Assembly (NCBI GenBank): GCA_021808365.1
Contig: JAKBBU010000004.1
Location: 1-62,423 of the forward strand
Direction: 5' to 3'
DNA: 62,423 nt
Source of the DNA: Pseudomonadota bacterium
GTDB taxonomy: Bacteria; Pseudomonadota; Gammaproteobacteria; JAKBBU01
Shown: positions 1-53,871 of the stretch, piece by piece
How positions within the stretch are numbered: position 1 is the stretch's first letter
How the letters are laid out: every line of letters starts with the position of its first letter
Notes under the pieces: generated by a model
Database searches by the model: none
Told to the model about the DNA's origin: nothing
Seen by the model: only the letters and a program-made list of their open reading frames with translations
Translations under genes and position numbers: made by a program

Positions 1-28
1 ATCCAACCCCGAATTACCGGAGACTTTG

Positions 29-480: not shown

Positions 481-531
481 GTAGAGTAAGAGGCAGAGCG
501 TAGTCGCACTATTTCTCTGCCTCTCCTCTCC

Positions 532-565
532 GAACCGTACGTGCACCTTTCAGCGCATACGGCTC
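532..565 (-). ncRNA. Group II intron catalytic domain V
   Basis: The minus strand reads gagccgtatgcgctgaaaggtgcacgtacggttc. This is the canonical 34-nt domain V hairpin, with the AGC triad and a GAAA tetraloop. Confidence 0.9.
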
Positions 566-574
566 TCCACTTAA

Positions 575-2104
575 CTATGGACTAACTGCCATAGCAACAT
601 CAGCATAGCGAGAGGTGATTGTATTTCTGATTTCATCTCTAAGATAAGGGTTGACCTCTGGCAGCCGCCAACGGAAGGTGCGTTTAGGGCTGCTCACTAA
701 TCGATATAATGAGACGCCACACAAATTACCTTTGTTGGTTTTGCCAAACAGTACCCATGTTTTAGCTTTGCTTTCTGCGGGCCGTTTGCACCATCGTTTC
801 ATCAATGACTTGATGCTGCAACGGTATTTACGCGCCAGCCAGTGAGCCAGTTTCCAGAAAATAATTCGGTCTATTTTACTGTAAACTTTGGCCGTGAAAT
901 CAGTGAAGCAGTAAAACTGTGCCCAGCCAGTTAATTTCTGATTAAGCTTTTCTACTTTATCAATCTTGCTATGACTGTAATCTGCCGATAATTCTTGACT
1001 CAAAGAGTGAGCAAAGGCTTTCGATTTCGTCGCAGGAATGCCCGTGACTACTCGCATATTGCCTTTCGGTCCCCGTTTGCGTACAAGCCGGTGCCCTAGA
1101 AAAATGAACCCGTCATTCACATGAGTAATACGGGTTTTATCCCTATTTAATGTGAGTTTGAGTTTGTTTTCCAGAAATGCTCGGCATTGTTCGCGGATGA
1201 TGGCTGCTTCCTCTTTTGTGCCTTTGACGATGACTATAAAATCATCGGCATAACGGCAATAAGCAACAGCGGGTTTCCATTCTCTCTTTTGCTCGATAGC
1301 CGGTTTCCGACCAATTTTGATACTGTGATTCCAATACCATCGGTCTTTCCGTGCTTTCTTACTGAGGTAGCATTCATCCAGATATTGATCAAACTCATTG
1401 AGCATGATGTTTGATAATAATGGCGAGATCACTCCTCCCTGCGGAACTCCTTCACTCGCTGCATAGAATAGATTTTTCTCGACGTGTCCAGCTTTAATAA
1501 AGCGCCACAACAAATCATTAAAGCGTTTGCAGTTGATCCGTTTACGTATGCACTTCATCAGTAACTTGTGATGTACCGTATCAAAGTAACTGGATAAATC
1601 ACCTTCAATGATCCAGCGTCCTCTGGTTTCATTTGAATCAGTTAACTGTAGCTTTACCGTACGAATAGCATGGTGAACGCTGCGTTCTGGCCTGAATCCA
1701 TAGGATAGTGAATGAAAATCGTTCTCCCATATGGGTTCCATGGCCATTAACATGGCTCTTTGCACTATTCTATCTTGTAGTGTGGGAATACCTAGCGGCC
1801 GTAATTTACCATTCGCTTTAGGAATGTAAACTCTTTTTGCCGGTTGCGGTTGATAGTCGCCTGACAATAAATCATTTCTAATTTTAGTCAGACATGTAGT
1901 CAACGTTTCCTGCAATTTGAATTTAGTGATCCCATCAACTCCAGGTGTATGAGCGCCTTTTGAAGATAGAGTGATTTCTGCTGCTTCTTTGAGCCAGTCA
2001 GGATCGCTGATGAGACGCAGCAGCCGATTCACTCGTCGCGTTTTATCCGCTGCAGTCCATGTTGCTAATTTGCGTTGCATTTCACTGATGATCAAGGTCT
2101 TCAC
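575..2104 (-). CDS. Group II intron-encoded reverse transcriptase/maturase
   Basis: 509 aa. RT blocks are present (KANGKLRPLGIPTLQDRIVQRA, SYGFRP, YADDFIVIV), followed by a maturase/X region. No obvious HNH endonuclease tail was seen. The stop lies 10 nt before domain V. Confidence 0.9.
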   Translation of the reverse strand: MKTLIISEMQRKLATWTAADKTRRVNRLLRLISDPDWLKEAAEITLSSKGAHTPGVDGITKFKLQETLTTCLTKIRNDLLSGDYQPQPAKRVYIPKANGKLRPLGIPTLQDRIVQRAMLMAMEPIWENDFHSLSYGFRPERSVHHAIRTVKLQLTDSNETRGRWIIEGDLSSYFDTVHHKLLMKCIRKRINCKRFNDLLWRFIKAGHVEKNLFYAASEGVPQGGVISPLLSNIMLNEFDQYLDECYLSKKARKDRWYWNHSIKIGRKPAIEQKREWKPAVAYCRYADDFIVIVKGTKEEAAIIREQCRAFLENKLKLTLNRDKTRITHVNDGFIFLGHRLVRKRGPKGNMRVVTGIPATKSKAFAHSLSQELSADYSHSKIDKVEKLNQKLTGWAQFYCFTDFTAKVYSKIDRIIFWKLAHWLARKYRCSIKSLMKRWCKRPAESKAKTWVLFGKTNKGNLCGVSLYRLVSSPKRTFRWRLPEVNPYLRDEIRNTITSRYADVAMAVSP

Positions 2105-2755
2105 CTCCTATTTTCAGATAGTCTGCTGACGCAGATTAATTAAGCTGTGTCCCTTCGCCCTGTGATAGGCTTTCCCCACCTCCGACTACTACGAACACTC
2201 CGCCGATTTATTTGTCATTGAGGTCATGCTCTCTTAATCATCCAAATAAATCTTCCCCGGTTTACCTATTTGAACTCAACCATACTGTTTTGGATGCCCA
2301 TCGCAATCTTTAACCTTATCGTGCTGTAAGGTGATAACGTTTGAATGTAGAACTGTGGTGTAACATTCATCTGTAGCCAATGCGCTACGTCTCATTGGCT
2401 AGGCGGTATTTCCATCCATACATATAATGGAAGTTACAACGTTATACTGCCTATTAACTCGAGTAGGCAGTGGCGACATTTCAGCCCATAGATGCGGGTT
2501 AATGGGTTCATGTTCTTCATCCGTTCAGTACTTAGTCTTGGGAAGCATCTTGATTTATCGAGTTCATCTCACTTCCCTTTGTCAGCGGGTTACATCACCT
2601 TATCAGCATACGGTAAGTCACTGCCGCTCAGACTCAGGCGCTTACACAGCTAAGCACCGTCTTGTACATGTTTATTTCCTCCTCATTGTAAAAGAATTTC
2701 AAATAGATTCGTGGTTCTCTTTAAGCTTCCATGCTGCTGTAAAACTCCGGGCACA

Positions 2756-3165
2756 CTGTACGTGATATCGCTGACCCATTTCTCATCAGGTTTCGTGGCC
2801 TCAAAGTTTTGTTGTAATAAATTAGGCGCAACAGGTAGTCGATGGTTGCTGTTCGTCGTGGCTTTGTATTTCTTAGCTGCGCGTGCACGCCATTGATTCT
2901 CACGCATTAATCGTGCAATCCGGTGACGACCCACCGTGTGACCTTGCGCCTTTAAACGTTGATAAATTCGCATCGCGCCTGGGCGTGATTTCTCTTGGTC
3001 AAAAATAGTTTTAATCTGCTGTGTCAGCTCGATATTCGCTTGTTTTCGTGCTGAAGGTTTACGACCTAGCCAATCGTAATAACCGCTCGAAGAAACGCCT
3101 AAAAGATGACACATGCGCCCAATTGAATAACACGTCGAATGTTGTTTGATCATCGCGTACCTCAC
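2756..3165 (-). CDS. IS3-family transposase OrfB, N-terminal part (5' exon)
   Basis: The sequence ...GYYDWLGRKPSARKQAN...RIYQRLKAQGHTVGRHRIARLMREN...KPDEKWVSDITY ends at the intron 5' splice site. It is in the -1 frame relative to orfA. Confidence 0.85.
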
Positions 3166-3461
3166 TTCGTGTCTTTCGCAAAGTACGCTGCCGCTTTTTT
3201 TAAGAATGAATTTTCTTCTTGTAATCGGCTATTTTCTCGTTTCAACCGAGCCATCTCAGCCTGTTGGAGCTTTTGATTTTCTAGCGTATCTCCGCCTTGT
3301 TTGCGCTTGGCTCGCCATGAATAAATCATCGCTTCGGCAAGACCTAAATCCTTGGCAACTTGAGAGACTCCATCTTTCGCTACGCGTTCAAGCACTTGCT
3401 CTTTGAATTGGGGACTATATTTTTTTCGGGTCTTGGCTTTGACCTTATTTTTCTCACTCAT
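3162..3461 (-). CDS. IS3-family transposase OrfA (helix-turn-helix, leucine-zipper tail)
   Basis: 99 aa. KKYSPQFKEQVLERVAKDGVSQVAKDLGLAEAMIYSWR is the typical IS3/IS911 OrfA HTH. A coiled-coil tail (LQQAEMARLKRENSRLQEENSFLKKA) follows. Confidence 0.9.
   Translation of the reverse strand: MSEKNKVKAKTRKKYSPQFKEQVLERVAKDGVSQVAKDLGLAEAMIYSWRAKRKQGGDTLENQKLQQAEMARLKRENSRLQEENSFLKKAAAYFAKDTK
3195..3201 (-). promoter_or_regulatory. Programmed -1 ribosomal frameshift slippery heptamer (A AAA AAA) at the orfA/orfB overlap
   Basis: A run of 7 T lies on the plus strand. In the orfA frame it reads TTA AAA AAA GCG. The orfB frame is -1 relative to orfA, worked out from the coordinates. Confidence 0.7.
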
Positions 3462-3535
3462 CGTTCACCTCGTTTAACAGATTTTACTCTCTTAACAAGG
3501 TCTCCGACAAATCGGGGCTAGATCAAAATGCTATA

Positions 3536-3577
3536 AACCTAAATTCGGCAGTTGTAATCTACTGCCGAATTTAGGTT
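3536..3577. repeat. Solo hairpin made of the same inverted-repeat sequence as the MITE at 21875-22065
   Basis: The sequence is aacctaaattcggcagt tgtaatct actgccgaatttaggtt, a 17-bp perfect stem. The same 17-mer forms the termini of the 191-bp element between recG and dapB. Confidence 0.8.
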
Positions 3578-6936: not shown

Positions 6937-7227
6937 CTAATGGTGATCTTTAAGTTTGTCCTTGTGTTTATCCACAAGCTTTTTTAATTTTTCATACAGC
7001 AGATCAATGGCTTCATACAAGTCTTTTGATTGTGCACTGGCTTGTAGATGGGTACCAGGAACATGGACCTGGGCTTCTGCCCATTGTTCTAATTTTTCAA
7101 CACCGAGGGTGACATCGATGCTGATGATGCTTGGAAAGTGGCGGCTCAGTCGGCTGAGTTTTTCAGTGACTGTCGTGCGTAGGGCGTCTGTGATTTCAAT
7201 GTGACGACCTTTAAATGTTATTTGCAT
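6937..7227 (-). CDS. hpf: Ribosome hibernation promoting factor (HPF/YhbH, short form)
   Basis: 96 aa. MQITFKGRHIEITDALRTTVTEKLSRL... is the typical sigma-54 modulation protein/S30EA fold signature. Confidence 0.85.
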   Translation of the reverse strand: MQITFKGRHIEITDALRTTVTEKLSRLSRHFPSIISIDVTLGVEKLEQWAEAQVHVPGTHLQASAQSKDLYEAIDLLYEKLKKLVDKHKDKLKDHH

Positions 7228-7460
7228 GATAAATCCTTACTTGCTGGAAATTTACGACCCCTAGTTTTAGTATAACATGTTTCCGAATTTAGTCATAAAG
7301 GGTTACAGTGAAGGCCACACCAATACCACAAAGCAGTTTCAGGCCCTAAATGCGAATTTCTGTTGAGGCAATTAAATTTCAAGTGCGAAATCTACTTGAG
7401 AGCGTCAATTTGTGCCGATTTTACCTTTTTTGCAGCTAGGAGAGTCAATGTAAACAGACC

Positions 7461-8381
7461 CTAAACTAAATTCTCAATAAATCTCTGTAAAATCGGATCC
7501 AAATCGGCTTTAAATGAAAAATCTTTCTTTAAATGATCCAAGTAAAACGAAATAGAAACAGCATGTAAAAATAATCGGTTCAAGCCTTGCACTTTTAACT
7601 GTTTATTTAAAGACCAATCGCCGTATCTATCATCTCCCGCAATGGGGTGACCTGCATGTGCGGCATGAACGCGGATCTGATGCGTACGACCCGTTAAAGG
7701 TTCAGCTTGCACCAAGGTCCAGCTTTGAAAATGTTGCAATGGTTTAAAATCAGTGATTGCAGATGAGCCATCTTCTGCAACACACACACTTGTACCTATT
7801 TTGGATTCTGTCCGGCGAAGAGGAGCATCAATGCGCAGACTTTTTTCCCAACACCCAACAACCAATGCCAGATAACGTTTTGTGATTTGCCCTTCACGCA
7901 AAAGTTGATGTAATGCAAGAAGAGTTTTGCGATCTTTCGCTAACAGCAAACAACCTGAGGTCTCACGATCCAAACGATGTACTAATTCTAAAAAACCCGA
8001 CTGACCTTCGCGCGCACGCAACAACTCGATCAGGCCACTTTCAATACCGCTTCCTGCATGAACTGCCAGGCCTGAGGGTTTATTCAGTACTAATAAATGT
8101 TCATCTTCATACAGAATACATTGTTTGGTCTGCGCCACTTTTCGTGGATCGACGATTACTGTTGGCCCTTCTGAATCTTTAATAGGCGGCAAACGCACAA
8201 CATCGCCTTCTTGCAAACGATAATCTGCATCCACGCGTTTTTTATTCACGCGCACTTCACCTTTTCGCAAGACACGATAGACACGGCTTCGAGGCACGCG
8301 TTTGAATTGTGTTAATAAATAATTATCGATCCGTTGGCCTGTGGCTTCAGCTCCAATCGTCACGATGCGAACGGTGGTCAT
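7461..8381 (-). CDS. rluC: 23S rRNA pseudouridine synthase, RluC/RluA family
   Basis: An S4 RNA-binding domain is at the N-terminus (RIDNYL...[19 protein letters not shown]). The catalytic motif [15 protein letters not shown] is present. Confidence 0.8.
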
Positions 8382-9820: not shown

Positions 9821-9823
9821 AGC

Positions 9824-9936
9824 TTAATGTTCTCTTAAGGTTAGACCCGTATCATAACCATAAATAACAAAAATAATACAAGAAAAATAATAAATGCTCT
9901 GAAAGCACTTTGCCCCACTTCGGTGGGGTTTTTTTT
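9824..9936 (+). repeat. Copy A of a ~110-nt repeat module ending in an intrinsic terminator (candidate sRNA or mobile terminator module)
   Basis: ttaatgttctcttaaggtt...aaataacaaaaa...gctctgaaagcactttgccccacttcggtggggtttttttt. It is homologous to copies at 9953-10060 and 39750-39860. Confidence 0.75.
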
Positions 9937-9952
9937 CTTCTTTTTTTCAACC

Positions 9953-10060
9953 TTAATATTCCCTTAAGGTTTGCCCTCTACAATGAACCTAAATAACAAA
10001 AACAAACAATAAAAACGACCGCTTTGAAAGCACTTTAGCCCCTCTTCGGAGGGGTTTTTT
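9953..10060 (+). repeat. Copy B of the terminator-ending repeat module
   Basis: ttaatattcccttaaggtttgccctctacaatgaacctaaataacaaaaacaaacaataaaaacgaccgctttgaaagcactttagcccctcttcggaggggtttttt. It is nearly identical to the reverse complement of 39750-39860. Confidence 0.8.
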
Positions 10061-10988: not shown

Positions 10989-11025
10989 AAAGCCTCTTTA
11001 TACATTTGTCGTATTTATCGAGTAT

Positions 11026-11073
11026 AAAGAAGACTGCACCAATACCACAACACGTATTGGTGCACCCTTCTTT
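11026..11073. repeat. REP-like palindromic element, short form (family with the centre caccaatac-GTGTTGTG-gtattggtg)
   Basis: aaagaagactgcaccaatac cacaacac gtattggtgcacccttcttt. The arms are 20 bp with two mismatches. It lies between the co-directional minus-strand genes msrBA and the LysM gene. Confidence 0.85.
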
Positions 11074-11084
11074 TTATCGACCAA

Positions 11085-12161
11085 TTAGCCAACACTCTTA
11101 GGATTCACCGCTACATCCAAAACATGGATCGGTAATTTTGCATCGAGGATCAAACCTAGGCTAATTTGAGGTGTGGTACGAAAGACCATTAATGTTCCTT
11201 CTTTTTTAATAGGACGACTATATGTTTTTCCTGAGGATTGCATCGCCGCCAAGACTGCATCGTTGGTTTCAATGATCGTTAAAATATCGCCCACGACCAA
11301 TCCATCCTTTGATCCCTTATCCAACACAACAACATTGTATTGTCCTGCTTCAATGACACCATCAAGCACCGATAAAATTTTTGCGCGAATCGGTATAGTA
11401 GGTAATCGAGGCCGATAATTCTGTGGCTGCGGTAGTGATTGTTTCATCACGATGTAATCACCGCCTTCCACTTCGCGATTTGTACTGGTTAAGTATAAAC
11501 TTGCAGGATTACCCACTTGGCTCAGTGTGCCCTGGCCAATTTCTAGCATGGCAATCCCTAACACTTTTTGTGTTTCAGGTAGCGTAAACGTATCTAATTT
11601 TCGATAAATAAAATACATTTTACCAGGTATCCCACCTGAGGGTAAATTGGCAACATTAATAGAATCACCTGCGCCACCTACAACATGTTCGTCCTCAACC
11701 TCCAAAACCGTTGGAAGACTATTCAGTGTTTTAGGATCGATAATCTGCATATCAACTAAATAAGGCTTGATAATATTTAATGGGATCGCGGGGACAGGTT
11801 CATTCAACTGAACACTACGCACGCTCGGTTTTAATTTAATCGTACCGCCCTCGTGAACAGAAAGCTGCGGTGTGGTTCCCTTAAATGTTAACGTCAAAAT
11901 ATCCCCTGGATAGAGGTTTTTTGGACCTTGGCCACCGGGCCAAAGTTGTGGCCATTGCAAGGGATCTTGTAAAAATTGGGATGAAATCGACCATAATGTA
12001 TCACCAGGCTGAATCACATAGGAAACAGGATAGTGAGACTCTAATAAAATATCTGTTTTTTCTGGTTGCTCAGGGGCCTGAGTTTGAGGCTGAATTGGGG
12101 CCGCATAAACTAAAACACTCAAATTGACCATTAATACAAAACATAAAAAGCGCATAACCAT
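11085..12161 (-). CDS. LysM peptidoglycan-binding protein, TsaP-like (secretin-associated family)
   Basis: A signal peptide is followed by a LysM domain (YVIQPGDTLWSISSQFLQDPLQWPQLW...NLYPGDILTL) and then a ~250-aa C-terminal domain. The start codon overlaps the dotB stop (TAATG). Confidence 0.6.
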   Translation of the reverse strand: MVMRFLCFVLMVNLSVLVYAAPIQPQTQAPEQPEKTDILLESHYPVSYVIQPGDTLWSISSQFLQDPLQWPQLWPGGQGPKNLYPGDILTLTFKGTTPQLSVHEGGTIKLKPSVRSVQLNEPVPAIPLNIIKPYLVDMQIIDPKTLNSLPTVLEVEDEHVVGGAGDSINVANLPSGGIPGKMYFIYRKLDTFTLPETQKVLGIAMLEIGQGTLSQVGNPASLYLTSTNREVEGGDYIVMKQSLPQPQNYRPRLPTIPIRAKILSVLDGVIEAGQYNVVVLDKGSKDGLVVGDILTIIETNDAVLAAMQSSGKTYSRPIKKEGTLMVFRTTPQISLGLILDAKLPIHVLDVAVNPKSVG

Positions 12162-18600: not shown

Positions 18601-18617
18601 ATTACTCTTTAAGCATA

Positions 18618-18681
18618 TTGATCAGAAAGAAGAGTGCATCAATACGTGTTGTGGTATTGATGCACTCTTCTTTCTGATCAA
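18618..18681. repeat. REP-like palindromic element, 64 bp, perfect 28-bp arms
   Basis: ttgatcagaaagaagagtgcatcaatac gtgttgtg gtattgatgcactcttctttctgatcaa. It lies between the co-directional plus-strand genes gshA-like and gshB. Confidence 0.9.
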
Positions 18682-18711
18682 TAAACATTCATCTAACTTT
18701 ATGAGAATAGT

Positions 18712-19653
18712 ATGACTAAACAACTTGGTGTCGTCATGGATCCCGTTGAACTGATCCATCCCAAAAAAGACAGCACATTGGCGATGCTCCTTGCTGCACA
18801 AATGCGTGGATATACTTTACATTACATGACACCTTCGGATCTCTATTTGCGAGATGGCATTGTGTATGCGCAAACAACGTTATTAAAAGTTTATGATGAT
18901 CCACAACATTGGTTTGATGTTCTGGAACAAAAAATAATCGCGCTGCATGAGCTCGGATTGATTCTCATGCGTAAAGATCCACCGTTTGATTTAGAATATA
19001 TTTACACGACACATCTTCTTGAGCGTGCAGAGCATCTAGGTTGTAAAGTGGTCAATCGTCCGCAATCTCTTCGAGATGTGAGTGAAAAATTATTCACGGC
19101 TTGGTTTCCACAATGTTGTCCTCCGAGCTTGGTGACACGAAGTCATGCACGTTTATTTGAATTTTTACAGGAACAAGGCGAAGTCATTTTTAAACCGCTC
19201 GAGGGCATGGGTGGCGCGTCGATTTTTCGAATTAAAAAAGGTGACACCAATGCACATGTTGTGATTGAAACACTCTCGCAGCATGAAAAAAAATTCATCA
19301 TGGCGCAACGTTTTATTCCTGAAATTTCATCCGGCGATAAACGCATTTTGTTGATCGATGGTATTCCTATTCCCTATGCACTCGCACGGATCCCCGCGCC
19401 TGGAGATAATCGTGGAAATTTAGCTGCAGGCGCACACGCAGAAGGTCGCGAACTTAACGATCGCGATCGCTGGATCTGCAATGAAGTCGGTCCTGTGTTA
19501 CGCGCAAAGGGATTGCGCTTTGTGGGTATCGATGTGATCGGGAATTATTTAACAGAAATTAATGTAACCAGCCCAACATGCATCCGAGAATTAAATGCCT
19601 GCTTTGGACTTGACATTGCGGGACAGTTGATGGACGCATTGGAAAATCAATAG
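18712..19653 (+). CDS. gshB: Glutathione synthetase
   Basis: 313 aa. The N-terminus VVMDPVELIHPKKDSTLAMLLAAQMRGY and the ATP-grasp C-terminal half resemble E. coli GshB. Confidence 0.9.
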   Translation: MTKQLGVVMDPVELIHPKKDSTLAMLLAAQMRGYTLHYMTPSDLYLRDGIVYAQTTLLKVYDDPQHWFDVLEQKIIALHELGLILMRKDPPFDLEYIYTTHLLERAEHLGCKVVNRPQSLRDVSEKLFTAWFPQCCPPSLVTRSHARLFEFLQEQGEVIFKPLEGMGGASIFRIKKGDTNAHVVIETLSQHEKKFIMAQRFIPEISSGDKRILLIDGIPIPYALARIPAPGDNRGNLAAGAHAEGRELNDRDRWICNEVGPVLRAKGLRFVGIDVIGNYLTEINVTSPTCIRELNACFGLDIAGQLMDALENQ

Positions 19654-19763
19654 CTTATAGCATTTATCCTATTTGTTAAGTACAGGGAAAGCTACACCAA
19701 TACGTGTTGTGGTATTGGTGTAGCTTTCCCTGTACTTAACAAATAGGATAAATGCTATAAGCT
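19652..19763. repeat. REP-like palindromic element, full-length form, 112 bp, perfect 52-bp arms
   Basis: agcttatagcatttatcctatttgttaagtacagggaaagctacaccaatac gtgttgtg followed by its exact reverse complement (checked base by base). It fills the whole gshB-recG gap. It overlaps 2 nt of the gshB stop and abuts the first ATG of recG. Confidence 0.95.
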
Positions 19764-21881
19764 ATGGAGAAAATCGTGCAACACAATAATAGCGAAAAAA
19801 AGGGGTCTTCACTCAGCACAATGCCCTGCCAATATTTAAAGGGCGTCGGCCCCCAACTTGCCCAAAAACTTGCGAAACGATCCATCCATACCGTTCAAGA
19901 TCTTCTTTTTCATTTACCGCTGCGCTACCAAGATCGGCGTCGCATCACACCTCTGCGTGGGCTTCGCCAAGGAGAATGGGCCGTGGTTCAAGGCCGTATT
20001 GTGGATATTGTTTTAAAACGCAGACCGCGATCCACATTCGAATGTGTGATCGAAGATGAAAGTGGTACGATGAAAATGCGATTATTTCATTTCAGTGGTG
20101 TCCAAATTGATCACTTGGCCATTGGGAAAATATTACGCTGCTTTGGCGAAACACGTTGGCGCCAAGGCAGTTATGAAATGGTACATCCAGAATATGTTTG
20201 TAGTGATGAAGGTAAATTACCTCCTTTAGAAAAAGAATTAACACCGATTTATCCCACGACTGAAGGATTAAGCCAAAAAAAATTACGCGCCCTCACCGAT
20301 CTTGCTCTCGATTTATTGGCTCATGATAATCTCTTAGTCGATTACTTGCCTGCACCGATTTGCCACGCTCATCAGTTCCCTGACTTAAAAACAGCCCTGC
20401 AGCGTGTACACCGCCCCCCAAATACTACGTCAGCAGATTTACTGGAACAAGGAAAAGATCCTGCGCAACATCGCCTTGCCTTTGAAGAATTAATTGCCCA
20501 CCATTTAAGTTTACGGCGAATACGCGAGTGCATTCAAAAACATGAAGCACCCGCTTTTTCGAATTCTCAGCTTTCTGAAATGCTTCTTAAAAATTTACCG
20601 TATGAATTGACATCCGCTCAGAAAAAAGTAAGCACTGAAATTCAAGCTGATTTAAATAAGCCAATCCCCATGATGCGTTTAGTGCAAGGCGATGTCGGTT
20701 CCGGAAAAACCATTGTTTGCGCGCTAGCAGCACTTCAAGCCGTTGAATGCGGTTATCAAGTCGCCGTCATGGTACCTACTGAATTATTAGCGGAACAACA
20801 TGAGAAAAATTTCCGCGCTTGGTTTGAGCCGCTCAATATTCGTGTGGAAGGTCTAAAAAGTAATTTAAGTGATAAATTAAAACAAGAACGATTAAAATCG
20901 ATTCAAGATCATTCGATTCAAGTTGCCATTGGCACGCATGCTTTATTTCAAAAACACGTTCAATTTTCAAAGTTGGGATTAATCATTGTCGATGAACAGC
21001 ATCGCTTTGGTGTTCAGCAACGTTTAGACTTATGGGAAAAAGGCAGCCAAGATCATAAACGGCCGCATCAATTAATTTTATCAGCCACACCGATTCCACG
21101 TACTTTAGCCATGACTGCTTATGCTGATTTAGATTGCTCAGTGATCGATGAATTACCGCCCGGACGAAAACCTATCGTCACGGTTGCACTTGCAGACACA
21201 AAGCGCCATGAAGTTGTAGAGCGCGTGCGTTTCGCGTCGAAAAAAAATCAACAAATTTATTGGGTATGTACGCTCATTGAAGAATCTGAAGTTTTACAAT
21301 GCCAAACCGCAGAAGAAACGGCTCAGCAATTGCGTTTGATACTGCCTGAGTTAAACATTGGTTTAATTCACGGTCGTCTTAAAAGTGCAGAAAAAGAAGA
21401 GGTGATGCGCGCCTTTGTACAAGGAGAATTTCAATTATTAGTCGCAACCACGGTGATTGAAGTCGGTGTTGATGTACCTAATGCTAATCTCATGGTGATT
21501 GAAAATCCTGAACGATTAGGCCTTGCACAATTGCATCAATTACGCGGGCGAATTGGTCGAGGCAGTGAAGAAAGTTTTTGTGTGCTCTTGTATAAAAATC
21601 CCCTATCCAAGGATGCTTTTGCACGCCTAGATGTCATGCGAAAAAGTCAGGATGGTTTTGTGATCGCACAAAAAGATTTAGAAATTCGTGGCCCTGGTGA
21701 AGTTTTAGGGACACGTCAAACAGGATTATTGGGGTTGCGCATTGCTAATCTTGTCCGTGATCAGCATTTAATTGCGCCTGCGCGCCAAGCCGCAGAGACG
21801 TTAATGCGGGAACACTCCGCTGCCGTTGAGCCACTCATTTCACGCTGGCTGGGAGCAGCAGAGCAGTTTGGACAGGTTTAA
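19764..21881 (+). CDS. recG: ATP-dependent DNA helicase RecG
   Basis: 705 aa. The helicase motifs GDVGSGKT and DEQHRFG are present, and LKGVGPQLAQKLAKRSIHTVQDLLFHLPLRYQDRR is the typical RecG N-terminus. An alternative GTG start at 19776 has the RBS ggaga. Confidence 0.9.
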   Translation: MEKIVQHNNSEKKGSSLSTMPCQYLKGVGPQLAQKLAKRSIHTVQDLLFHLPLRYQDRRRITPLRGLRQGEWAVVQGRIVDIVLKRRPRSTFECVIEDESGTMKMRLFHFSGVQIDHLAIGKILRCFGETRWRQGSYEMVHPEYVCSDEGKLPPLEKELTPIYPTTEGLSQKKLRALTDLALDLLAHDNLLVDYLPAPICHAHQFPDLKTALQRVHRPPNTTSADLLEQGKDPAQHRLAFEELIAHHLSLRRIRECIQKHEAPAFSNSQLSEMLLKNLPYELTSAQKKVSTEIQADLNKPIPMMRLVQGDVGSGKTIVCALAALQAVECGYQVAVMVPTELLAEQHEKNFRAWFEPLNIRVEGLKSNLSDKLKQERLKSIQDHSIQVAIGTHALFQKHVQFSKLGLIIVDEQHRFGVQQRLDLWEKGSQDHKRPHQLILSATPIPRTLAMTAYADLDCSVIDELPPGRKPIVTVALADTKRHEVVERVRFASKKNQQIYWVCTLIEESEVLQCQTAEETAQQLRLILPELNIGLIHGRLKSAEKEEVMRAFVQGEFQLLVATTVIEVGVDVPNANLMVIENPERLGLAQLHQLRGRIGRGSEESFCVLLYKNPLSKDAFARLDVMRKSQDGFVIAQKDLEIRGPGEVLGTRQTGLLGLRIANLVRDQHLIAPARQAAETLMREHSAAVEPLISRWLGAAEQFGQV

Positions 21882-22065
21882 CCTAAATTCGGCAGTTAAA
21901 GTCGTAACGAGAAGGGCTAAGACGCTGAATATCGGCTTTTTTTTGGTTTTTTTTCGCAAGACAGTAGACACCCCTACGGTGAAGCGAAAAAAAAGTAAAA
22001 AAATGACGAGATTCAATGGATTAGACCTTCGCAGTAGACTTTAACTGCCGAATTTAGGTTAAACC
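21875..22065. mobile_element. 191-bp MITE-like element with perfect 29-bp terminal inverted repeats
   Basis: The left end ggtttaacctaaattcggcagttaaagtc (21875-21903) is the exact reverse complement of the right end at 22037-22065. The interior is an imperfect palindrome. It contains the recG stop codon (21879-21881) and ends 1 nt before the dapB stop. Confidence 0.85.
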
Positions 22066-24872: not shown

Positions 24873-25313
24873 ATGGCTGATAAACCTGACAAACCAAAAA
24901 AGAAACCTTTTTTCAACGTCTCACGCGCGATGGGGTTAGGTTTCTTATCATCATTTAACAAAACGATTGCGCACAATGCCCGGCTCTTGTTCAAACCCAA
25001 AAAATCCGATCGTCAAGAAACGTTTGAAGAAGCAAAAATAAGACTAAACCTTTCTGAGGAAGATATCCAAAAAAGAGCTCGTGATTGCGCTAAATTTGCA
25101 TTGGGTTTTGCCATATTTGCATTCCTAACACTTTTTTATATGATTTATCTCTTCTGGCACGCCCACATTGCGGCAGGTTTATTAGCCTTTGTTATAACAG
25201 TCATGGTACTCACCCAAGCTTTTCGTTATCATTTTTGGTATTTTCAAATGAAATCTCGCAAATTGGGCTGTACATTCAAGGAATGGCTTGAATCGAGCTG
25301 GAAAAGCTTTTAA
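24873..25313 (+). CDS. icmV: Dot/Icm inner-membrane protein IcmV
   Basis: 146 aa with two TM helices. The motif FRYHFWYFQMKSRKLGCTFKEW matches my recollection of IcmV. It is adjacent to dotA. Confidence 0.8.
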   Translation: MADKPDKPKKKPFFNVSRAMGLGFLSSFNKTIAHNARLLFKPKKSDRQETFEEAKIRLNLSEEDIQKRARDCAKFALGFAIFAFLTLFYMIYLFWHAHIAAGLLAFVITVMVLTQAFRYHFWYFQMKSRKLGCTFKEWLESSWKSF

Positions 25314-25508
25314 TTTGCATACAATCATGATATAATAAGCTTACTTGTTTTTCTATCAAGCCCAACACTTCCCTGGTTCTAAGCTATAATTTCATAATCC
25401 AGGTTTGTTTCCAGCACTTTGCCAAACAGGCCATTAATCCTTCGAATTTTAGATTAATGCAAGATCGCATTCATCCTCTTGCTAACCCAGTTTCAGGAAG
25501 TTGTTTCA

Positions 25509-28253
25509 ATGAAAACCTATCCATCTTTACCTACCTTAAAGGTTAAAACCATGAGATTACTGATAATAATATTACTTCTTGCGATTTCCACCACTAGCTT
25601 CGCGGCTTCCTCCGTTAACCCCGTTATTACCCCCCAGCAACCCGTTATTGTTTCCACCCCTGGTTCCACATTCAGCCTGACCCCAACGCCTGGAGATGCT
25701 TCAGTCCAATATTTAAGCCAAATTTTTGGGCAAGTGGGCAATGTGTTGACGGGTACAAATGACACATTGATTGCTCAAGTTTTCTACGGTTTTAACTATG
25801 CTGTTATTTTCCTCGCCTGTATTTTGATCGTTTACACCCTGTTTGTCAGTATTCTCAATACAGCCCAAGACGGCGAAATGATGGGCAAAAAATGGAGTTC
25901 TATTTGGGTGCCCTTGCGAATGGTTGCAGGTTTAGCACTTCTCCTACCTGTTTCTGCCGGTTATAGCGCCATGCAGGTGATTGTGATGTGGGTTGTACTC
26001 CAAGGTGTTGGCGCAGCTGACAGCATTTGGGGCATTGCCGTAAAAGGATTAACCAATAATCAAGGAACCTTCAATCCGCCTACCCTTACCTCGGAAGAGG
26101 GCATGAAGACCTCACGCAATGCCTTCGCAGCGTCAGAATCTCTTCTTAACTTTCAAGTTTGCATGAATGTCCTTAATCAAGTCTACAGTGAAAATACAGG
26201 ATCGGGCTCTTCTTGCCAAGTTGTACCCATCAGTAACACAACCAACGAATATCAAATTTCATGTTCCGAGACAATTTTTATACCTGAAGAAGAAGGTGGT
26301 GGCTCGAATGTCTTAATGAATTGTGGGACAATTACACCCGACTATTCTAGTATTTCAACGAATTATCCCAATCTAGAACCTGGTGGAGGACCCAGCAATT
26401 TTCAGATTTACACAGGCGTTCAAACGGGGCTTTCACAAATGTTGGCGGCCATTACTCCAGCAGCCCAGGCCATCACCAACGATGTCGCCGCAGTATCTTA
26501 CAACAACTCTCCCATTACCATCATCCCGGAAAACGCGATTAGCACAGGCGCTACCGATTATACCGCCCCAGTGACTCAAGCGATAACCAACTATATCATT
26601 GCCGTAGGTAAAGAAAATCCACAAAAACTTTTCAACGCTATGAAAAGCATCACTCAGCAGCTCATCAGTGATTATAACCTTCCAATCAATACAGAAAGTG
26701 ATCTAGGTGCAAAATATCCGCCCTGTAATGCAACTCAGGAGCAAGAAGTTATTAACGACGTTAAAAGTGATATGAAAGAATTTCCCAACTTGTATCAGGG
26801 CAACGACATAAGCTATTCAGAGTTTCAAACTCACATGAATACAATTGTTAACCGATATGGCTGCGACCCTCTTCCTAATGATCATCCTAAGAATACAACC
26901 AGCAAAATGGAATCAACAGGTTGGTTTGATGCAGGACAATATTATCTCGTTTTAGCTGAGCGCAGTTTCGTGAAAGCTAATGCGAGTAACATTGCTATGG
27001 GGGGGAGATATAATACCTATGGACACGGAAGTATTGAACTCCAATATACTGGGGAACCTGCAATTGCTGGTGTTAATCTAGTCCCCTACCAAGATGCGGT
27101 TAATAAATATGCCTCTATCGAGCGCTCTAGTATACGCAACAGTCTACCTAAGACGGCTCCTGTTTGGATGGGTGAAAGCTCATTAAATGCCCCTAATAGT
27201 GGAGACCCCTCTGATGCCATGGTAAATAGTATTAACCAAGCAATGGGGCAATGGTCAGCTTTGTATGCGCAGCTGTCAGGTTATGTTTATATGCACCAAT
27301 CATATATTTCAGAGAGCGGCGGTTCATCAAGTTGTGGGCTGGGGATATTTTGTAGTCATTCCTGGACTGCTTATCATTTCGGCAATGGACGAAAACGATT
27401 CCAGGACCCCTTTATTGCAATTCAGAATTTTGGAACTTATCTGATTTATGATGCTGTACAAGGATTTAAAAACACTGGGCTTTGGTTCAGTTCCACAGAA
27501 GCTGAAGAATGGTGGAAATATGCACTTCCTGGCGGAAGTATTTGGGGGAATCAAGCTATTGACGATATGATTGCAGCAGCTTGGTATCTGCCTGTCGGTG
27601 TTGCCATATTAGGTGCTATGCTGTCAGCCGGAATTATGATGGGTGTTTATATGCCCTTGATACCCTTTATTTTATTTACATTAGGTGCTATTGGTTGGTT
27701 ATTGGGTGTTGTTGAAGCAATGGTTGCTGCCCCCATCGTTTGCTTTGGTTTAATGCATCCTAATGGGCAAAATGAGGTAGTCAGCAAGGCTGAACCCGCC
27801 GTGATGTTGCTGATCAACACCTTTATTCGGCCTGGACTGATGGTTGTGGGGCTATTAGTCAGCTTGGGGCTCGTCTATGTTTGTATCAGCGTAATTAACG
27901 ATGGTTTTGCAACAGTACTCTCTAGTTTAGTCACCTTCGGTGCACGCACATCAGGAGCTTTCGTCGCAGCCGCTTTCATGGGAATTTATGGGCTTCTCTT
28001 AGTTTTAGTCGTTCAAAAATGTTTCTCCCTTGTTTCTTTAATTCCAGATAGCGTGTTACGGTGGATACAAGGTGGCGAGGCTGCACGTGAACAATTTGGC
28101 GCATTTGACCAAATTGGCGAACAAATGGGCCAAAAAGTGGGCAGCGCTGCAAGCTCTGCAGGTCAAGCTGCTGGCCAATCTTCCACTCAACAAGCCAGCG
28201 GTGAAGAACAGATTGCCGGAAATGCACAGAAGAAGGAAGATGGTCTATTTTAG
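25509..28253 (+). CDS. dotA: Dot/Icm polytopic membrane protein DotA
   Basis: About 915 aa. A signal-like N-terminus is followed by DASVQYLSQIFGQVGNVLTG, a large periplasmic domain between TM segments, and a C-terminal cluster of TM helices. It sits among icmV/W/X. Alternative starts are at 25479 (TTG) and 25551. Confidence 0.85.
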   Translation: MKTYPSLPTLKVKTMRLLIIILLLAISTTSFAASSVNPVITPQQPVIVSTPGSTFSLTPTPGDASVQYLSQIFGQVGNVLTGTNDTLIAQVFYGFNYAVIFLACILIVYTLFVSILNTAQDGEMMGKKWSSIWVPLRMVAGLALLLPVSAGYSAMQVIVMWVVLQGVGAADSIWGIAVKGLTNNQGTFNPPTLTSEEGMKTSRNAFAASESLLNFQVCMNVLNQVYSENTGSGSSCQVVPISNTTNEYQISCSETIFIPEEEGGGSNVLMNCGTITPDYSSISTNYPNLEPGGGPSNFQIYTGVQTGLSQMLAAITPAAQAITNDVAAVSYNNSPITIIPENAISTGATDYTAPVTQAITNYIIAVGKENPQKLFNAMKSITQQLISDYNLPINTESDLGAKYPPCNATQEQEVINDVKSDMKEFPNLYQGNDISYSEFQTHMNTIVNRYGCDPLPNDHPKNTTSKMESTGWFDAGQYYLVLAERSFVKANASNIAMGGRYNTYGHGSIELQYTGEPAIAGVNLVPYQDAVNKYASIERSSIRNSLPKTAPVWMGESSLNAPNSGDPSDAMVNSINQAMGQWSALYAQLSGYVYMHQSYISESGGSSSCGLGIFCSHSWTAYHFGNGRKRFQDPFIAIQNFGTYLIYDAVQGFKNTGLWFSSTEAEEWWKYALPGGSIWGNQAIDDMIAAAWYLPVGVAILGAMLSAGIMMGVYMPLIPFILFTLGAIGWLLGVVEAMVAAPIVCFGLMHPNGQNEVVSKAEPAVMLLINTFIRPGLMVVGLLVSLGLVYVCISVINDGFATVLSSLVTFGARTSGAFVAAAFMGIYGLLLVLVVQKCFSLVSLIPDSVLRWIQGGEAAREQFGAFDQIGEQMGQKVGSAASSAGQAAGQSSTQQASGEEQIAGNAQKKEDGLF

Positions 28254-28336
28254 GTTTAAAGTGGTGTACCCCTTGATGTTGCAAGATCCAAGGGGTCAAG
28301 TACAATGATGCTAAGTCTTAAGGAAAAAACTTTAAA

Positions 28337-28921
28337 ATGGGTCACCTGAAAATATCGCGATTGTTTTTTTTATTCAGCCTGTTCTGTATTCAGACAAGTA
28401 TTTTTGCGGCACCTTCTGATCAAGCACAGAAAGTGTGCTCTAGTCAAAACATTGCGATCAGTCACTATAATATCCTTGTTGCAAAAGGCGTATTTACTAT
28501 CAAGCCAACACGCGCTCCTTTTTCATCGGGCATTTGGATCAGCGGTTCGTGTAAAGCACTTAAAGCAATTAAAATCCAAACGAATGGGAATCAGCTGACA
28601 ATTGCTTCACCTTCGCCCAAATTAAGTTCTACGAATGATCAAGCTTCGGCAGTATCCATTGAAGTTCCTGTTGGAAATATACCCTCACTCACAGTTACTT
28701 TAGAAGGTAAGGCTGAATTCATTATGGGTAATATCGGTTTGAAAAAACTCAATATCCAAACAAAAGATGAGTCCCATGCACAAGTAACTGCCAGTAATTG
28801 GCTGAATATGATTGCTTTAAATCACAGTAGTATTTATTTTACTGGCAGACCCAAGCATGTTGATGCACAATCTTATGATCAAAGCACGTTAGTTTCTCTG
28901 TTACCTCCTGAGTATTATTAG
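28337..28921 (+). CDS. Hypothetical secreted protein embedded between dotA and icmW
   Basis: 194 aa with the signal peptide LFFLFSLFCIQTSIFA. The rest looks beta-rich and repetitive. I do not recognise a family with confidence. Confidence 0.55.
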   Translation: MGHLKISRLFFLFSLFCIQTSIFAAPSDQAQKVCSSQNIAISHYNILVAKGVFTIKPTRAPFSSGIWISGSCKALKAIKIQTNGNQLTIASPSPKLSSTNDQASAVSIEVPVGNIPSLTVTLEGKAEFIMGNIGLKKLNIQTKDESHAQVTASNWLNMIALNHSSIYFTGRPKHVDAQSYDQSTLVSLLPPEYY

Positions 28922-28930
28922 GACTGAATT

Positions 28931-29386
28931 ATGCCCGATCTCTCACGTAAAGCCGTTCATGAATTTTGGTCAGGTTATCAAGATAACTCTGTTTACAGAG
29001 TCATCTGTTTCTTAGAAGGCGTTGAAACCTGGACCTTAGATGGCAACCCTGATATTGAAAAAGCCCTGGATGAACTTGGATCAACACTCGACAGCATTGG
29101 AAATTTTGATCTGGGCGTACAGCAGGATATCGTCTCTGCTGGCAGCCATTTGACGACAGGACGAATCTTACGACTTTTGCAAACCCTAGATGCCGCGAAC
29201 CCAGGCGCAGCTTCACGTGTCTTAATCCATGCAGAGGAATCAAGTCGTCGCCAAGATGATATCGCTTCTCTTTTTCTAAGACGTAATATCGCCTTTGAAC
29301 GGTTGCGTTTAATTGGTCGCGTTTTTTCTAAAGAACGCTTCGCCTTACTTGCAAAAGCACTTGAAGGTGAAGATTCTGCTGAGTAA
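28931..29386 (+). CDS. icmW: Dot/Icm type IV adaptor/chaperone IcmW
   Basis: 151 aa. The sequence reads MPDLS...YRVICFLEGVETWTLDGNPDIEKALDELG...LRLLQTLDAANPGAASRVLIHAEE...FLRRNIAFERLRLIGRVF, very close to L. pneumophila IcmW as I remember it. Confidence 0.9.
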   Translation: MPDLSRKAVHEFWSGYQDNSVYRVICFLEGVETWTLDGNPDIEKALDELGSTLDSIGNFDLGVQQDIVSAGSHLTTGRILRLLQTLDAANPGAASRVLIHAEESSRRQDDIASLFLRRNIAFERLRLIGRVFSKERFALLAKALEGEDSAE

Positions 29387-29413
29387 CCCACTCTAATTTT
29401 GAGGTTCCATTTT

Positions 29414-29854
29414 ATGTTTAAAAAAATCATATTGATATCATTATTAGCGACTTTCACACAACATACCTTTGCTGCAGATGTGGCAAATATAGGTAATGGT
29501 GAGCAAACAGTACCTTCCTACACAAAAGAAACAACTTACGTTCAAAACCTTTATACGTCAATTTCAAATGGCAGTATCACACCAACTCCCGTTTATTCAA
29601 CAGGGGCTATTAATGTTTATTTTGCGGAGTTAGCAAGTAAAGTGCTTGGCGATCAATCTTCTCTTTCGACAACTCCTACACATTTAAATGCGAATCCGAT
29701 GCTATTAAAGTCTAAAACTACTTCAACCACGACCACAAACATAATGCCACCATCACCCCCATCTCCCATCCCGTCAATCCCATCTGAAACATCCAACAAC
29801 ACAGGGACAACAACAAACAACCAACCCCCATTACCTGTCGGTTTTGGAAATTAA
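29414..29854 (+). CDS. Hypothetical secreted Pro/Thr/Ser-rich protein between icmW and icmX
   Basis: 146 aa counted from the ATG at 29414. The signal peptide is MFKKIILISLLATFTQHTFA and the C-terminus is low complexity (TTSTTTTNIMPPSPPSPIPSIPSE). Confidence 0.5.
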   Translation: MFKKIILISLLATFTQHTFAADVANIGNGEQTVPSYTKETTYVQNLYTSISNGSITPTPVYSTGAINVYFAELASKVLGDQSSLSTTPTHLNANPMLLKSKTTSTTTTNIMPPSPPSPIPSIPSETSNNTGTTTNNQPPLPVGFGN

Positions 29855-29866
29855 GAGGAGCCCACC

Positions 29867-31108
29867 ATGCAAAAAAACGTAAAAAAAGCGGTATTTTCCG
29901 CTGTTGCTCTTATGATCTTGTCAGCGTCGAGCGCAAACGCGCAAACAAGCTATAACTCAACGCCAGGCACACCAAACACGGACGTACAAACAGCAGCAGG
30001 AAATTTATTACAACAAATCAATAATGGTGTCTACCAAATTCAACAGGATGTCAATAATGGATTCATGAACCTTAGCCAAGAAATTATGCTATTCAGTCGA
30101 TACATTAGTGATCTTGTTCATCAAACTGTAACCACGGGCGGCCACTTAATGTTTACCGTATCACCCGACCTACAAACAACGATGAGTTCCAACTATGGCG
30201 AAGGTGTTGCAAATCCAGTCGCTGTTGGGATGGCCTACCATCGAACCAATCAAGAACTTAATGAAATTATTTCAACGAATTCGAATACGCTCACCGTCTT
30301 AGGAAGACAAACAAGACTTGCAACCTTAGTCCCAGCCCCAAGTAGTACGAACCAAACAGAACAATTGTCATTAAGCGATGAAAAAAGAAATGATGTTCTT
30401 TATGCACCGATGAATCTCGACAGTCTTTTGGCGCCAGATAGTTACTTTACCAACGATGAGCAAGCAAATGCCCAAGCTTTTATTAAGTATGTCAGTTATG
30501 CAACAACCCCTTTCTTTAATCTCTCCCCCCTTTATTTTGCAAATAACTACCTTCCTGTACAACAATACCGTGCCTACTATGGAACTTATGCGGCTTTACA
30601 ATCCATTGGTTTAAGTAATTTTAATGAGCTTTTTTACCAACGTCAGCCTCAAAAAGGATTAGGCACACTTGCCGGCCTCGATTCTTCGCATCCTGATGCG
30701 AGCGTACAACAAGTCGAACACCATATGATCGTTGAACGAGGATTGAACCCGCAATGGTATGCGGAAATGGAAACCGCCCCACCTGCTACAATCGAACGCG
30801 AATCTCTTTACAGTCTAGCGGCCATCCAAGTTGAGTTATACAATAACAATCAGCTTTTACAAAGGTTGCTTACCACGGTATCGGCTATACAACTCACACA
30901 AACTCAAACTGAGGTAAGGCACAACCTTTCATCTCTACAACAAACTGTTGTTACGGATGCTCAAATGAAAAATAACAATCCCATTGACTTTGATAGATTA
31001 ATGAATGCTAATAATCCGTCCTCGCCTACGACACCAACCTCGCCCACACCAGGTGGGGTGGGTGTCGCCCCTGGCAATAATGTGGTTCAACCGCCGCAAC
31101 CGCAGTAG
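29867..31108 (+). CDS. icmX: Dot/Icm periplasmic protein IcmX
   Basis: 413 aa with a signal peptide (LMILSASSANA). It takes the position downstream of icmW that icmX occupies in other Dot/Icm loci. The sequence-level assignment was not verified. Confidence 0.7.
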   Translation: MQKNVKKAVFSAVALMILSASSANAQTSYNSTPGTPNTDVQTAAGNLLQQINNGVYQIQQDVNNGFMNLSQEIMLFSRYISDLVHQTVTTGGHLMFTVSPDLQTTMSSNYGEGVANPVAVGMAYHRTNQELNEIISTNSNTLTVLGRQTRLATLVPAPSSTNQTEQLSLSDEKRNDVLYAPMNLDSLLAPDSYFTNDEQANAQAFIKYVSYATTPFFNLSPLYFANNYLPVQQYRAYYGTYAALQSIGLSNFNELFYQRQPQKGLGTLAGLDSSHPDASVQQVEHHMIVERGLNPQWYAEMETAPPATIERESLYSLAAIQVELYNNNQLLQRLLTTVSAIQLTQTQTEVRHNLSSLQQTVVTDAQMKNNNPIDFDRLMNANNPSSPTTPTSPTPGGVGVAPGNNVVQPPQPQ

Positions 31109-34828: not shown

Positions 34829-34851
34829 GTTGATACCTTTTTGTTTTATCA

Positions 34852-34909
34852 GTCAAAGAGAAGGCTGCGCCAATGCCACAACACGCATTGGTGCAGCCTT
34901 CTCTTTGAC
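34852..34909. repeat. REP-like palindromic element, 58 bp
   Basis: gtcaaagagaaggctgcgccaatgc cacaacac gcattggtgcagccttctctttgac. The arms are 25 bp with 1 mismatch. It lies between the co-directional minus-strand genes folD and the permease. Confidence 0.9.
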
Positions 34910-34961
34910 CATTTAAATGTGTTAAATGGTATAAAGAGGGTATAGTAAATTGTAGGGAAAC

Positions 34962-44570: not shown

Positions 44571-44666
44571 AATTAGGATTCTGTTAACGCTTAAAAAATA
44601 CAACTCGTTGAAAAATAAACAAAAATAATCCTATCGCACCCAAACCGACCATTTCACTAAAAATAA

Positions 44667-45801: not shown

Positions 45802-45847
45802 AGACTTTTCTCTTAAAAAGTATTTTTTGAAAAATGCTCTTAAAAAA

Positions 45848-46930: not shown

Positions 46931-46932
46931 AT

Positions 46933-53855: not shown

Positions 53856-53871
53856 CAAAATTCAAATTGAT

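Follow-up and report, generated by a model that had tools for sequence, protein, structure and literature searches.

Contig JAKBBU010000004.1 of the gammaproteobacterial assembly GCA_021808365.1 (Pseudomonadota bacterium, lineage JAKBBU01) carries a set of palindromes that lie at gene junctions and share an asymmetric 8-nucleotide (nt) centre, GTGTTGTG. What kind of repeat is this, how did its copies reach their present places, and does the direction in which the centre is read mean that the repeat is maintained as RNA rather than as DNA? Coordinates and strands given below are those of the whole 62,423-nt stretch analysed (the window), which is one entire metagenome contig; the additional DNA seen takes the total to approximately 72 kb. 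We file these palindromes as a lineage-specific family, similar to repetitive extragenic palindromic (REP) sequences and to MITEs (small transposable elements with inverted repeats) and outside every named family, because there is no REP tag, no demonstrable target duplication and no partner insertion sequence (IS), REP-associated tyrosine transposase (RAYT) or IS110-type element in the reachable DNA. The explanation that we favour, with about an even chance of being right, is that the palindromes are transcribed together with their neighbours, that their hairpins influence messenger RNA (mRNA) ends and translational coupling, and that their loop is filtered as RNA.

Detection and membership of the family

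The octamer GTGTTGTG occurs eight times in the window, against 1.9 occurrences expected, and six of the eight are the originally predicted centres; the remaining two (33785 and 33998) lie inside mlaE without any surrounding palindrome and are chance matches. Likewise, a window scan with the 26-nt core CACCAATACGTGTTGTGGTATTGGTG returned five matches at three mismatches or fewer, where none was expected, and an inverted-repeat search retrieved five palindromes, each with arms separated by exactly 8 nt. A hidden Markov model (HMM) of the family, run over the 62-kb window, detected exactly seven loci and no further matches. From left to right, these are copies G (7278–7334, minus strand), A (10997–11085, minus), B (18606–18688, plus), C (19647–19768, plus), D (34835–34925, minus), E (46931–47011, plus) and F (53747–53856, minus). 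Copies B and D were recovered by core match, palindrome search, alignment and HMM, C by the palindrome search, and F by the palindrome search and the core match, A was identified by the core match, as a palindrome and by alignment (nhmmer E = 4e-23), E from the direct-repeat family, alignment and HMM, and G from the direct-repeat family and alignment (nhmmer E = 1e-9).

The window thereby holds five full hairpins, one internally deleted copy (E) and one half copy (G). An eighth copy, H, lies 47 nt past the right window end and was seen in a sister contig that extends 64 nt further, while the 9.5 kb adjoining the window on its left yielded no further copy. The five full palindromes and the seven HMM loci bear out the original prediction of a palindrome family; the degenerate copy that it placed at 46933 is a real member missing its inner 5′ arm, and the possible remnant that it noted near 7326 is a true half copy.

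Common ancestry and covariation of the arms

With the copies oriented so that the centre reads GTGTTGTG, the alignment shows that all of them descend from a perfect palindrome of approximately 110 nt, with arms of approximately 51 nt around that centre, because the ‘short’ copies can still be matched to the long arms through their flanks. It also shows that the copies have decayed since then to different degrees. The long form has shared termini (TTATAGCATTT...AAATGCTATAA), and the unit size ranges from 80 to 122 nt.

The intact long copies are C, with 57-nt arms that are 98% complementary and 50 Watson–Crick pairs out of 50 in the inner part, and F, whose 51-nt arms are 100% complementary. 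Copy B has 30-nt arms around GTGTTGTG (18616–18683), again 100% complementary, with a compensated change (CATCAAT/ATTGATG) that is unique to it; its flanks remain alignable with the long arms. Copies D and A keep the inner 23–25 bp and the loop, their outer arms being diverged or truncated. In D, the inner 25-nt arms (34852–34909) are intact (96%, with a single A·C mismatch in the sense strand) and the outer arms still have recognizable homology to the long form, their pairing being lost. In A, the inner palindrome (11023–11076) has 23-nt arms with 87% complementarity; its 3′ arm, kept at full length, comes within 8 nt of the start codon of msrBA (10988), and the 5′ arm is truncated 8 nt past the stop of a LysM gene (11085). 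Copy E has lost the inner 5′ arm, so that its outer 5′ arm is joined straight to the centre, and has a full-length 3′ arm and no hairpin. Copy G has lost its 5′ arm altogether and retains the 3′ arm with the final 5 nt of the centre (..TTGTG).

The most conserved columns of the alignment are the centre and its closing pairs, and every one of the seven copies that still have the 8-nt centre carries it unchanged. Across the 50-pair stem, 89% of the cells pair and 23 of the 50 pairs have changed on both sides; none of 500 shuffles reached the observed covariation, and no slid register came close. The comparison of C with F is especially clear, as nine of the 50 pairs differ between them and all nine differ on both sides, none being one-sided. 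The covariation between copies that the original prediction had proposed to look for is thus present, and it shows that the arms have been kept complementary by compensatory changes, under a pressure for pairing.

Position relative to genes and probable arrival by insertion

All seven in-window copies are located at junctions between co-directional genes. The 5′ edge of the repeat lies 2–15 nt after the upstream stop codon in five of the seven and overlaps the stop in C, and for A, C and D the downstream start codon lies 6–8 nt beyond the 3′ edge. On the plus strand, copy B separates gshA (stop 18600) from gshB (start 18712), and C separates gshB from recG, so that gshB is bracketed by two copies as first reported. 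Copy C overlaps the gshB stop codon (19651–19653) and extends to the GGAG ribosome-binding site of recG, which falls within the base of its stem; the true recG start is the GTG at 19776. Copy E, also on the plus strand, follows an ATP-binding cassette (ABC) permease gene and precedes the gene of a substrate-binding protein (46923–47960). The other junctions are on the minus strand, with upstream and downstream genes being, respectively, a rluD-like gene (7461–8381) and a 96-amino acid open reading frame (ORF; 6937–7227) for G, the LysM gene and msrBA for A, folD (stop 34962) and mlaE (start 34828) for D, and a major facilitator superfamily (MFS) transporter gene and deoB for F, which begins 15 nt past the transporter stop (53872) and ends 105 nt before deoB (53641). 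REPs in general are placed in this way, close behind stop codons where neighbouring genes run in one direction (PMC3733652). The label ‘REP-like’ in the original prediction was right in kind, the elements being dispersed, non-coding, hairpin-forming and situated just after stop codons, without the classical GTAG/CGTC tag.

Copy E is the sole intragenic copy, and it is there that the hairpin is lost. Its 81 nt, or exactly 27 codons, follow codon 3 of the gene for the ABC substrate-binding protein without a shift of frame and occupy the annotated codons 4–30; deletion of residues 4–30 yields MNK|YILCFLLLFFSTMAFSQA, a canonical signal peptide. This in-frame copy within a signal-peptide region is the best evidence that copies arrived by insertion. 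As to the gene itself, either the insert is translated, as a second hydrophobic segment, or the true start is the GTG at 46983. Gene callers read copy E as protein sequence.

Several features of MITEs are present, namely terminal inverted repeats, small size, non-coding sequence and seven dispersed copies in the window plus one at its edge. The bases just outside the shared termini are inverted rather than direct (TAGC/GCTA in C and GA/TC in F), and a palindromic AT/TA target duplication is indistinguishable from an extension of the repeat itself. Each copy has unrelated flanking sequence; the repeats are therefore not products of site-specific insertion.

Orientation relative to transcription and replication

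In the seven in-window copies, the centre reads GTGTTGTG on the coding strand of the flanking genes without exception (two-sided binomial test, p = 0.016; Fisher test, p = 0.029). Their exclusive location at co-directional junctions is less unusual (p ∼ 0.08), since 42 of the 60 junctions in the window are co-directional. GC skew is negative over the entire window, which therefore lies in one replichore, and within this replichore the copies split 4 : 4 between strands. The one-sign skew and the even split rule out a replication-linked orientation.

The original prediction held that the bias tracks transcription rather than replication, and that every copy lies in sense between co-directional genes. 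The exclusion of replication stands, while the transcription-linked bias is suggestive but unproven (p ∼ 0.02). The second claim is correct for the seven copies of the window and fails for the eighth: copy H (...acagggaaggcagcgccgatgcGTGTTGTGgcatcggcgc), which is in plus orientation 150 nt upstream of the start of a minus-strand methyltransferase gene (61456–62316), violates one of the two rules.

RNA hairpin or DNA palindrome

Computed RNA folds of the copies have energies of −37 to −94 kcal/mol, with z-scores of −6 to −21 (B: −49.8 kcal/mol, z −11.9; C: −94.4 kcal/mol, z −21; F: −87.2 kcal/mol, z −21). In the mechanism that we favour, copies would have landed in very tight gene junctions, and in one case in frame inside a signal-peptide coding region. 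They would be transcribed together with the flanking genes, because each is placed within a transcription unit or at the end of one, and their transcripts would fold into very stable hairpins that could act either as barriers against 3′ exonucleases or as substrates of RNase III. Where the stop codon and the ribosome-binding site are held in the stem base, as at gshB–recG, LysM gene–msrBA and folD–mlaE, translation of the downstream gene would be coupled to termination of the upstream one. The two orientations of the repeat differ in the loop (8 bases) alone, and the sense orientation may reflect a filter on that loop as RNA, GUGUUGUG being tolerated or useful and CACAACAC not, with a bias that would extend genome-wide. 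If the sense-only orientation does hold genome-wide, this family would be among the cleaner natural cases of a palindromic repeat selected as RNA rather than as DNA.

A more specific proposal, which we consider rather unlikely, is that the invariant GUGUUGUG loop on its covarying stem is a sequence-specific RNA site placed between cistrons throughout the genome of a Legionellales-type intracellular bacterium and read by an RNA-binding protein or ribonuclease, or else that the repeat spread by a mechanism that reads the transcribed strand. If either is true, a mobile palindrome would be the carrier of a post-transcriptional regulon that operates inside operons.

It is highly improbable that the hairpins serve as transcription terminators or attenuators between genes. 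They are strong and stand directly after stop codons, a T-rich arm (GCTTTCCTTGTATT) follows the inner stem and copy A scores as terminator-like on both strands; however, the full hairpin is never followed by a T-run, as the original prediction had stated and terminator scans confirmed for every copy, whereas classical T-run terminators do occur elsewhere in the window (45842–45875). Moreover, the copies lie inside apparent operons with the downstream start 6–28 nt away, and termination does not need a conserved loop. An intrinsic-terminator consensus scan gave no match at B, C or F and a marginal bidirectional match at A, the ‘tail’ of which is the continuing arm. Searched against Rfam 15 at the gathering threshold, the window contains only two tRNAs and a group II intron, with the repeats unmatched; at E ≤ 5 the repeats give only generic hairpin matches to miRNA precursors, far below the thresholds.

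Possible promoters were also noticed at the ends of the long copies. Both outer ends of F (53840–53856 and 53747–53763) read TGCTATAAT outward, and positions 19747–19757 of C read TGCTATAAG. Such sequences resemble extended −10 boxes, from which transcription would run into the downstream gene and, as antisense, into the one upstream; a two-hexamer promoter scan, however, found no promoter at the ends of C and F.

Several observations weigh against a role as RNA. The fold energies of the sense and antisense strands are equal, mismatches that are G·U in the sense transcript number eight versus six that are G·U in the antisense transcript (A·C in the sense one), and B, C and F are wholly Watson–Crick, with no wobble pair. 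The RNA-level function advanced in the original prediction thus has no sense-specific signature. Copies that are 100% Watson–Crick fit DNA-level templated correction at least as well as RNA selection, and recent copying would give them too. Covariation, moreover, does not single out the sense RNA as the selected form, as DNA-level correction of quasi-palindromes would give the same picture. In addition, there is only thin evidence for the orientation (n = 7, p ∼ 0.02), which was spotted by a pattern-seeking reader, and copy H, whatever its right neighbour, must break either the ‘co-directional’ or the ‘sense’ rule. Finally, the case for mobility is made by dispersal and by the in-frame insertion only, no target-site duplication being demonstrable and no autonomous partner having been seen.

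The chief competing explanation is that the palindrome is purely selfish or neutral DNA and has no function as RNA. Its arms would be kept perfect by intrastrand template switching that ‘corrects’ quasi-palindromes, by hairpin-directed repair or by recent copying from palindromic masters, and its seven sense orientations would be a small-sample accident or a by-product of insertion. We regard it as possible, albeit doubtful. Such a palindrome would account for long copies that are fully Watson–Crick without G·U intermediates and whose differences (nine pairs between C and F) are all two-sided, for the lack of any G·U/A·C asymmetry, for energies that are the same on both strands, for the departure of copy H from the orientation rule and for the decay of D, A, E and G. 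It would also fit the position of the only single-nucleotide polymorphism (SNP) in 6.9 kb, which is in a loop, as expected of exposed single-stranded DNA. Compared over 6,942 bases, two assemblies differ at one position only: G19709A changes the loop of copy C from GTGTTGTG to GTGTTATG (position 3998 of the sister contig L002). On the opposite strand this one event is a C-to-T change, as expected from deamination in an extruded single-stranded loop.

A neutral palindrome accounts less easily for seven sense orientations out of seven (p ∼ 0.016–0.03). Nor does it readily explain why D and A keep the inner stem of 23–25 bp and the loop though their outer arms have rotted, which looks like a constraint on the core, or why the centre is invariant although templated correction cannot act on an unpaired loop. 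Both the survival of inner stem and loop beside decayed outer arms and the invariant unpaired 8-mer argue for a constraint beyond templated correction.

Partner elements and the limits of assembly

A different explanation of the conserved core would be that CCAATAC-GTGTTGTG-GTATTGG is the landing site of an IS110/IS1111-type IS guided by a bridge RNA or seekRNA, the centre setting the orientation of the IS; parallels are IS1111 in small QMITE2 and IS621 in Escherichia coli REPs. The original prediction had also considered an IS110-type target. The host is Legionellales-like (icmW) and thus belongs to the same broad group as Coxiella, and the 22–26-nt conserved asymmetric core is reportedly of suitable size (PMC11187229). 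No DEDD/IS110 transposase and no split copy were found, however, in the window or in the 9.5 kb leftward, and the assembly breaks at the repeats, including a fold-back contig, are explained by the palindromes themselves. In addition, a landing site would account for the conservation of the core but not for its pointing with transcription. We therefore hold this explanation to be improbable, while noting that IS-occupied sites would escape assembly, because the contigs of all assemblies end at the repeats.

Mobilization of a classical REP or REPIN by a RAYT acting on single-stranded hairpins appears highly improbable. The family does consist of extragenic hairpin repeats with compensated stems, and a long hairpin with a short spacer is REPIN-like. 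Against this, GTAG is found in only two or three copies, with no conserved GTAG/CGTC tag, and the unit is one 110-nt palindrome rather than two REPs of 20–40 nt. No Y1 transposase gene occurs in the approximately 72 kb seen, and the orientation does not follow the replication strand, as it usually would after single-strand HUH transposition.

Over the same approximately 72 kb (the window and the 9.5 kb to its left), we detected neither an IS110/IS1111 nor a RAYT gene, nor any autonomous IS sharing the ends of the repeat. The only IS within reach is an IS3-like element that carries a group II intron; its ends (TGATCTAGCCCC.../TGATCCAACCCC...) are unrelated to the repeat termini. This element spans 1–3525 of the window on the minus strand, with ends TGATCTAGCCCCGATTTGTCGGAGAC / TGATCCAACCCCGAATTACCGGAGAC (positions 179–3706 of contig L019). 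Its transposase gene orfB is split by the intron (Rfam RF00029, 481–567), which encodes a reverse transcriptase/maturase of 501 amino acids (575–2080), and this combination of IS and intron recurs in every assembly. Immediately beside the end of the IS3-like element, positions 3526–3536 reproduce 11 nt of the palindrome terminus exactly (AAATGCTATAA).

Searches beyond this DNA returned no relative. None of the 185,579 GTDB species representatives scanned contains the 20-nt core, and PLSDB plasmids gave no core match. Scans with CAATRCGTGTTGTGGYATTG of genomes, Joint Genome Institute (JGI) metagenomes and IMG/VR viral contigs produced isolated chance matches, none of them with a palindrome. A six-frame peptide profile of the repeat retrieved nothing at E ≤ 10, and the open frame of copy F, compared with 1.84 billion representative proteins, matched one irrelevant low-complexity protein.

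The proteins of the window have no close relatives either, the best matches of gshB and RecG reaching 68% and 59% identity, respectively. IcmW, which is encoded in the window, and an ankyrin-repeat protein encoded in the adjoining left DNA point to a Dot/Icm-bearing, Legionellales-type host.

Identical DNA is present in several ENA/Logan assemblies and in two NCBI metagenome-assembled genomes (GCA_027437465.1 and GCA_027437335.1). Public data for this organism include the runs SRR13197234, SRR13201295, SRR13197295 and SRR13178631 and the ENA analyses ERZ27237250, ERZ27237223 and ERZ27237140. All of these are 99.98–100% identical, and the sole SNP within the element is the one in a loop. Contigs of these assemblies stop within the repeats or turn back on themselves there, several at copy F. 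The repeat thus accounts for the breaks and fold-backs that all assemblies of this organism show at the same places. In GCA_027437465.1, contig DAIAOC010000043.1 (bases 1–190) is chimeric through copy F, its first 55 bases being the reverse complement of bases 166–190 onward. A biological flip-flop of the loop, which appears inverted in this contig, was rejected: the left flank is the reverse complement of the right flank, and the inversion is an assembly artefact.

Other features of the window

Two other repeats share the window with the palindromes. A second, unrelated MITE-like family has perfect 17-bp terminal repeats (AACCTAAATTCGGCAGT) and is represented at 3536–3577 by a 42-bp ‘ends only’ copy and at 21880–22060 by a 181-bp copy that fills the convergent recG–dapB spacer from the recG stop codon. 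A third hairpin repeat, GGATTCCCGCC(T/C)CCGCGGGAATGAC, occurs at 45929–45953 and 61403–61427, both on the plus strand, with no occurrence expected by chance. The 313-nt spacer that separates pmbA/tldD from msrBA contains, at 9823–10005, a direct duplication of 129 nt with 78% identity over 54 nt.

The plus-strand genes around icmW (28931–29386) extend from 24873 to 31108 and comprise a 914-amino acid ORF and ORFs of 146, 194, 146 and 413 amino acids that have no Pfam match. The block, which may be Dot/Icm-associated or an effector region, gives the main clue to where the host belongs. Further along, a 346-amino acid ORF without a Pfam family (44761–45801) lies between tRNA-Met (44495–44571) and tRNA-Leu (46053–46139), and is followed by the classical bidirectional terminator at 45842–45875.

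Comparison with known repeat families

Apart from its orientation and its effects on assembly, the repeat described here belongs to an ordinary lineage-specific bacterial family, and several known families offer points of comparison. ERIC/IRU, YPAL and Correia (NEMIS) elements of enterobacteria, yersiniae and neisseriae, as treated by De Gregorio et al. in 2005–2006, are reportedly near-perfect palindromes of 100–170 bp located by stop codons, which are co-transcribed and form long RNA hairpins that affect the processing or stability of mRNA, the effects of ERIC being orientation-dependent. These are likewise palindromic repeats of the MITE type next to stop codons, and on the reading that we favour the present repeat would work as they and QMITE2 do. 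They occur, however, in both orientations to transcription, are associated with TA or other duplications and have been tested experimentally, whereas the orientation is uniform here in a small sample, no duplication is demonstrable and the family is known from sequence alone.

Rickettsia palindromic elements (RPEs) are typically intragenic. Like them, the present family is a palindromic repeat of an intracellular-type bacterium that is able to sit in frame in protein genes, as copy E does; unlike them, it has only one of its eight copies inside a gene, where the hairpin is lost, and the sequences are unrelated.

Classical REPs are defined by a conserved GTAG/CGTC tetranucleotide at one end of an imperfect palindrome of 20–40 bp (PMC3733652). 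They favour junctions between unidirectional or convergent ORFs, near the 3′ end of the upstream gene, and sometimes provide the stop codon or lie inside the 5′ ends of ORFs (PMC3733652). REP, BIME and REPIN sequences (Di Nocera et al. 2013, PMC3733652) thus resemble the present repeat in being extragenic hairpins with compensated stems and the same junction preference. The present unit is nonetheless three to five times longer and is built around a single conserved 8-mer spacer, and no RAYT was seen in approximately 72 kb. In addition, the alignment contains no conserved REP tag, with GGTGTAGC in C and E and GGTGCAGC in the other copies.

By host and by behaviour, the family comes closest to the QMITE2/REP stem-loop in which IS1111 lands in Coxiella burnetii (Wachter et al. 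2018, PMC5896051; Denison et al. 2007, PMC2104537). More than 50 such stem-loop targets are known in C. burnetii, and 20 of 21 IS1111 copies lie inside them (PMC2104537; PMC5896051). C. burnetii REPs are GTAG-tagged and have loops of 2–4 nt (PMC3733652), whereas the centre described here is 8 nt long and untagged. QMITE2 has direct repeats of 7–11 nt, and none are demonstrable here; nor was an IS1111-like gene seen near any copy in the DNA seen. No sequence relationship links the two families, as judged indirectly by the absence of the 20-nt core from the GTDB representatives and by the published description of C. burnetii REPs. An outright identification of the repeat with the QMITE2/IS1111 target of C. 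burnetii was rejected, given proteins without close relatives, exact matches confined to metagenome assemblies and the two metagenome-assembled genomes, and a core absent from the GTDB representatives.

The likeness to QMITE2 and small QMITE2 is one of kind. Both repeats are found in the same broad group of hosts (Dot/Icm-bearing and Legionellales-like), both exist as long and short versions of one palindromic repeat with a stem preserved between copies, and both are located mostly in 3′ untranslated regions or intergenic spacers, sometimes over the last codons of genes, DNA-repair genes included. They differ in what is kept constant: in Coxiella the loop varies between copies, whereas in the present family it is the loop that forms the invariant part.

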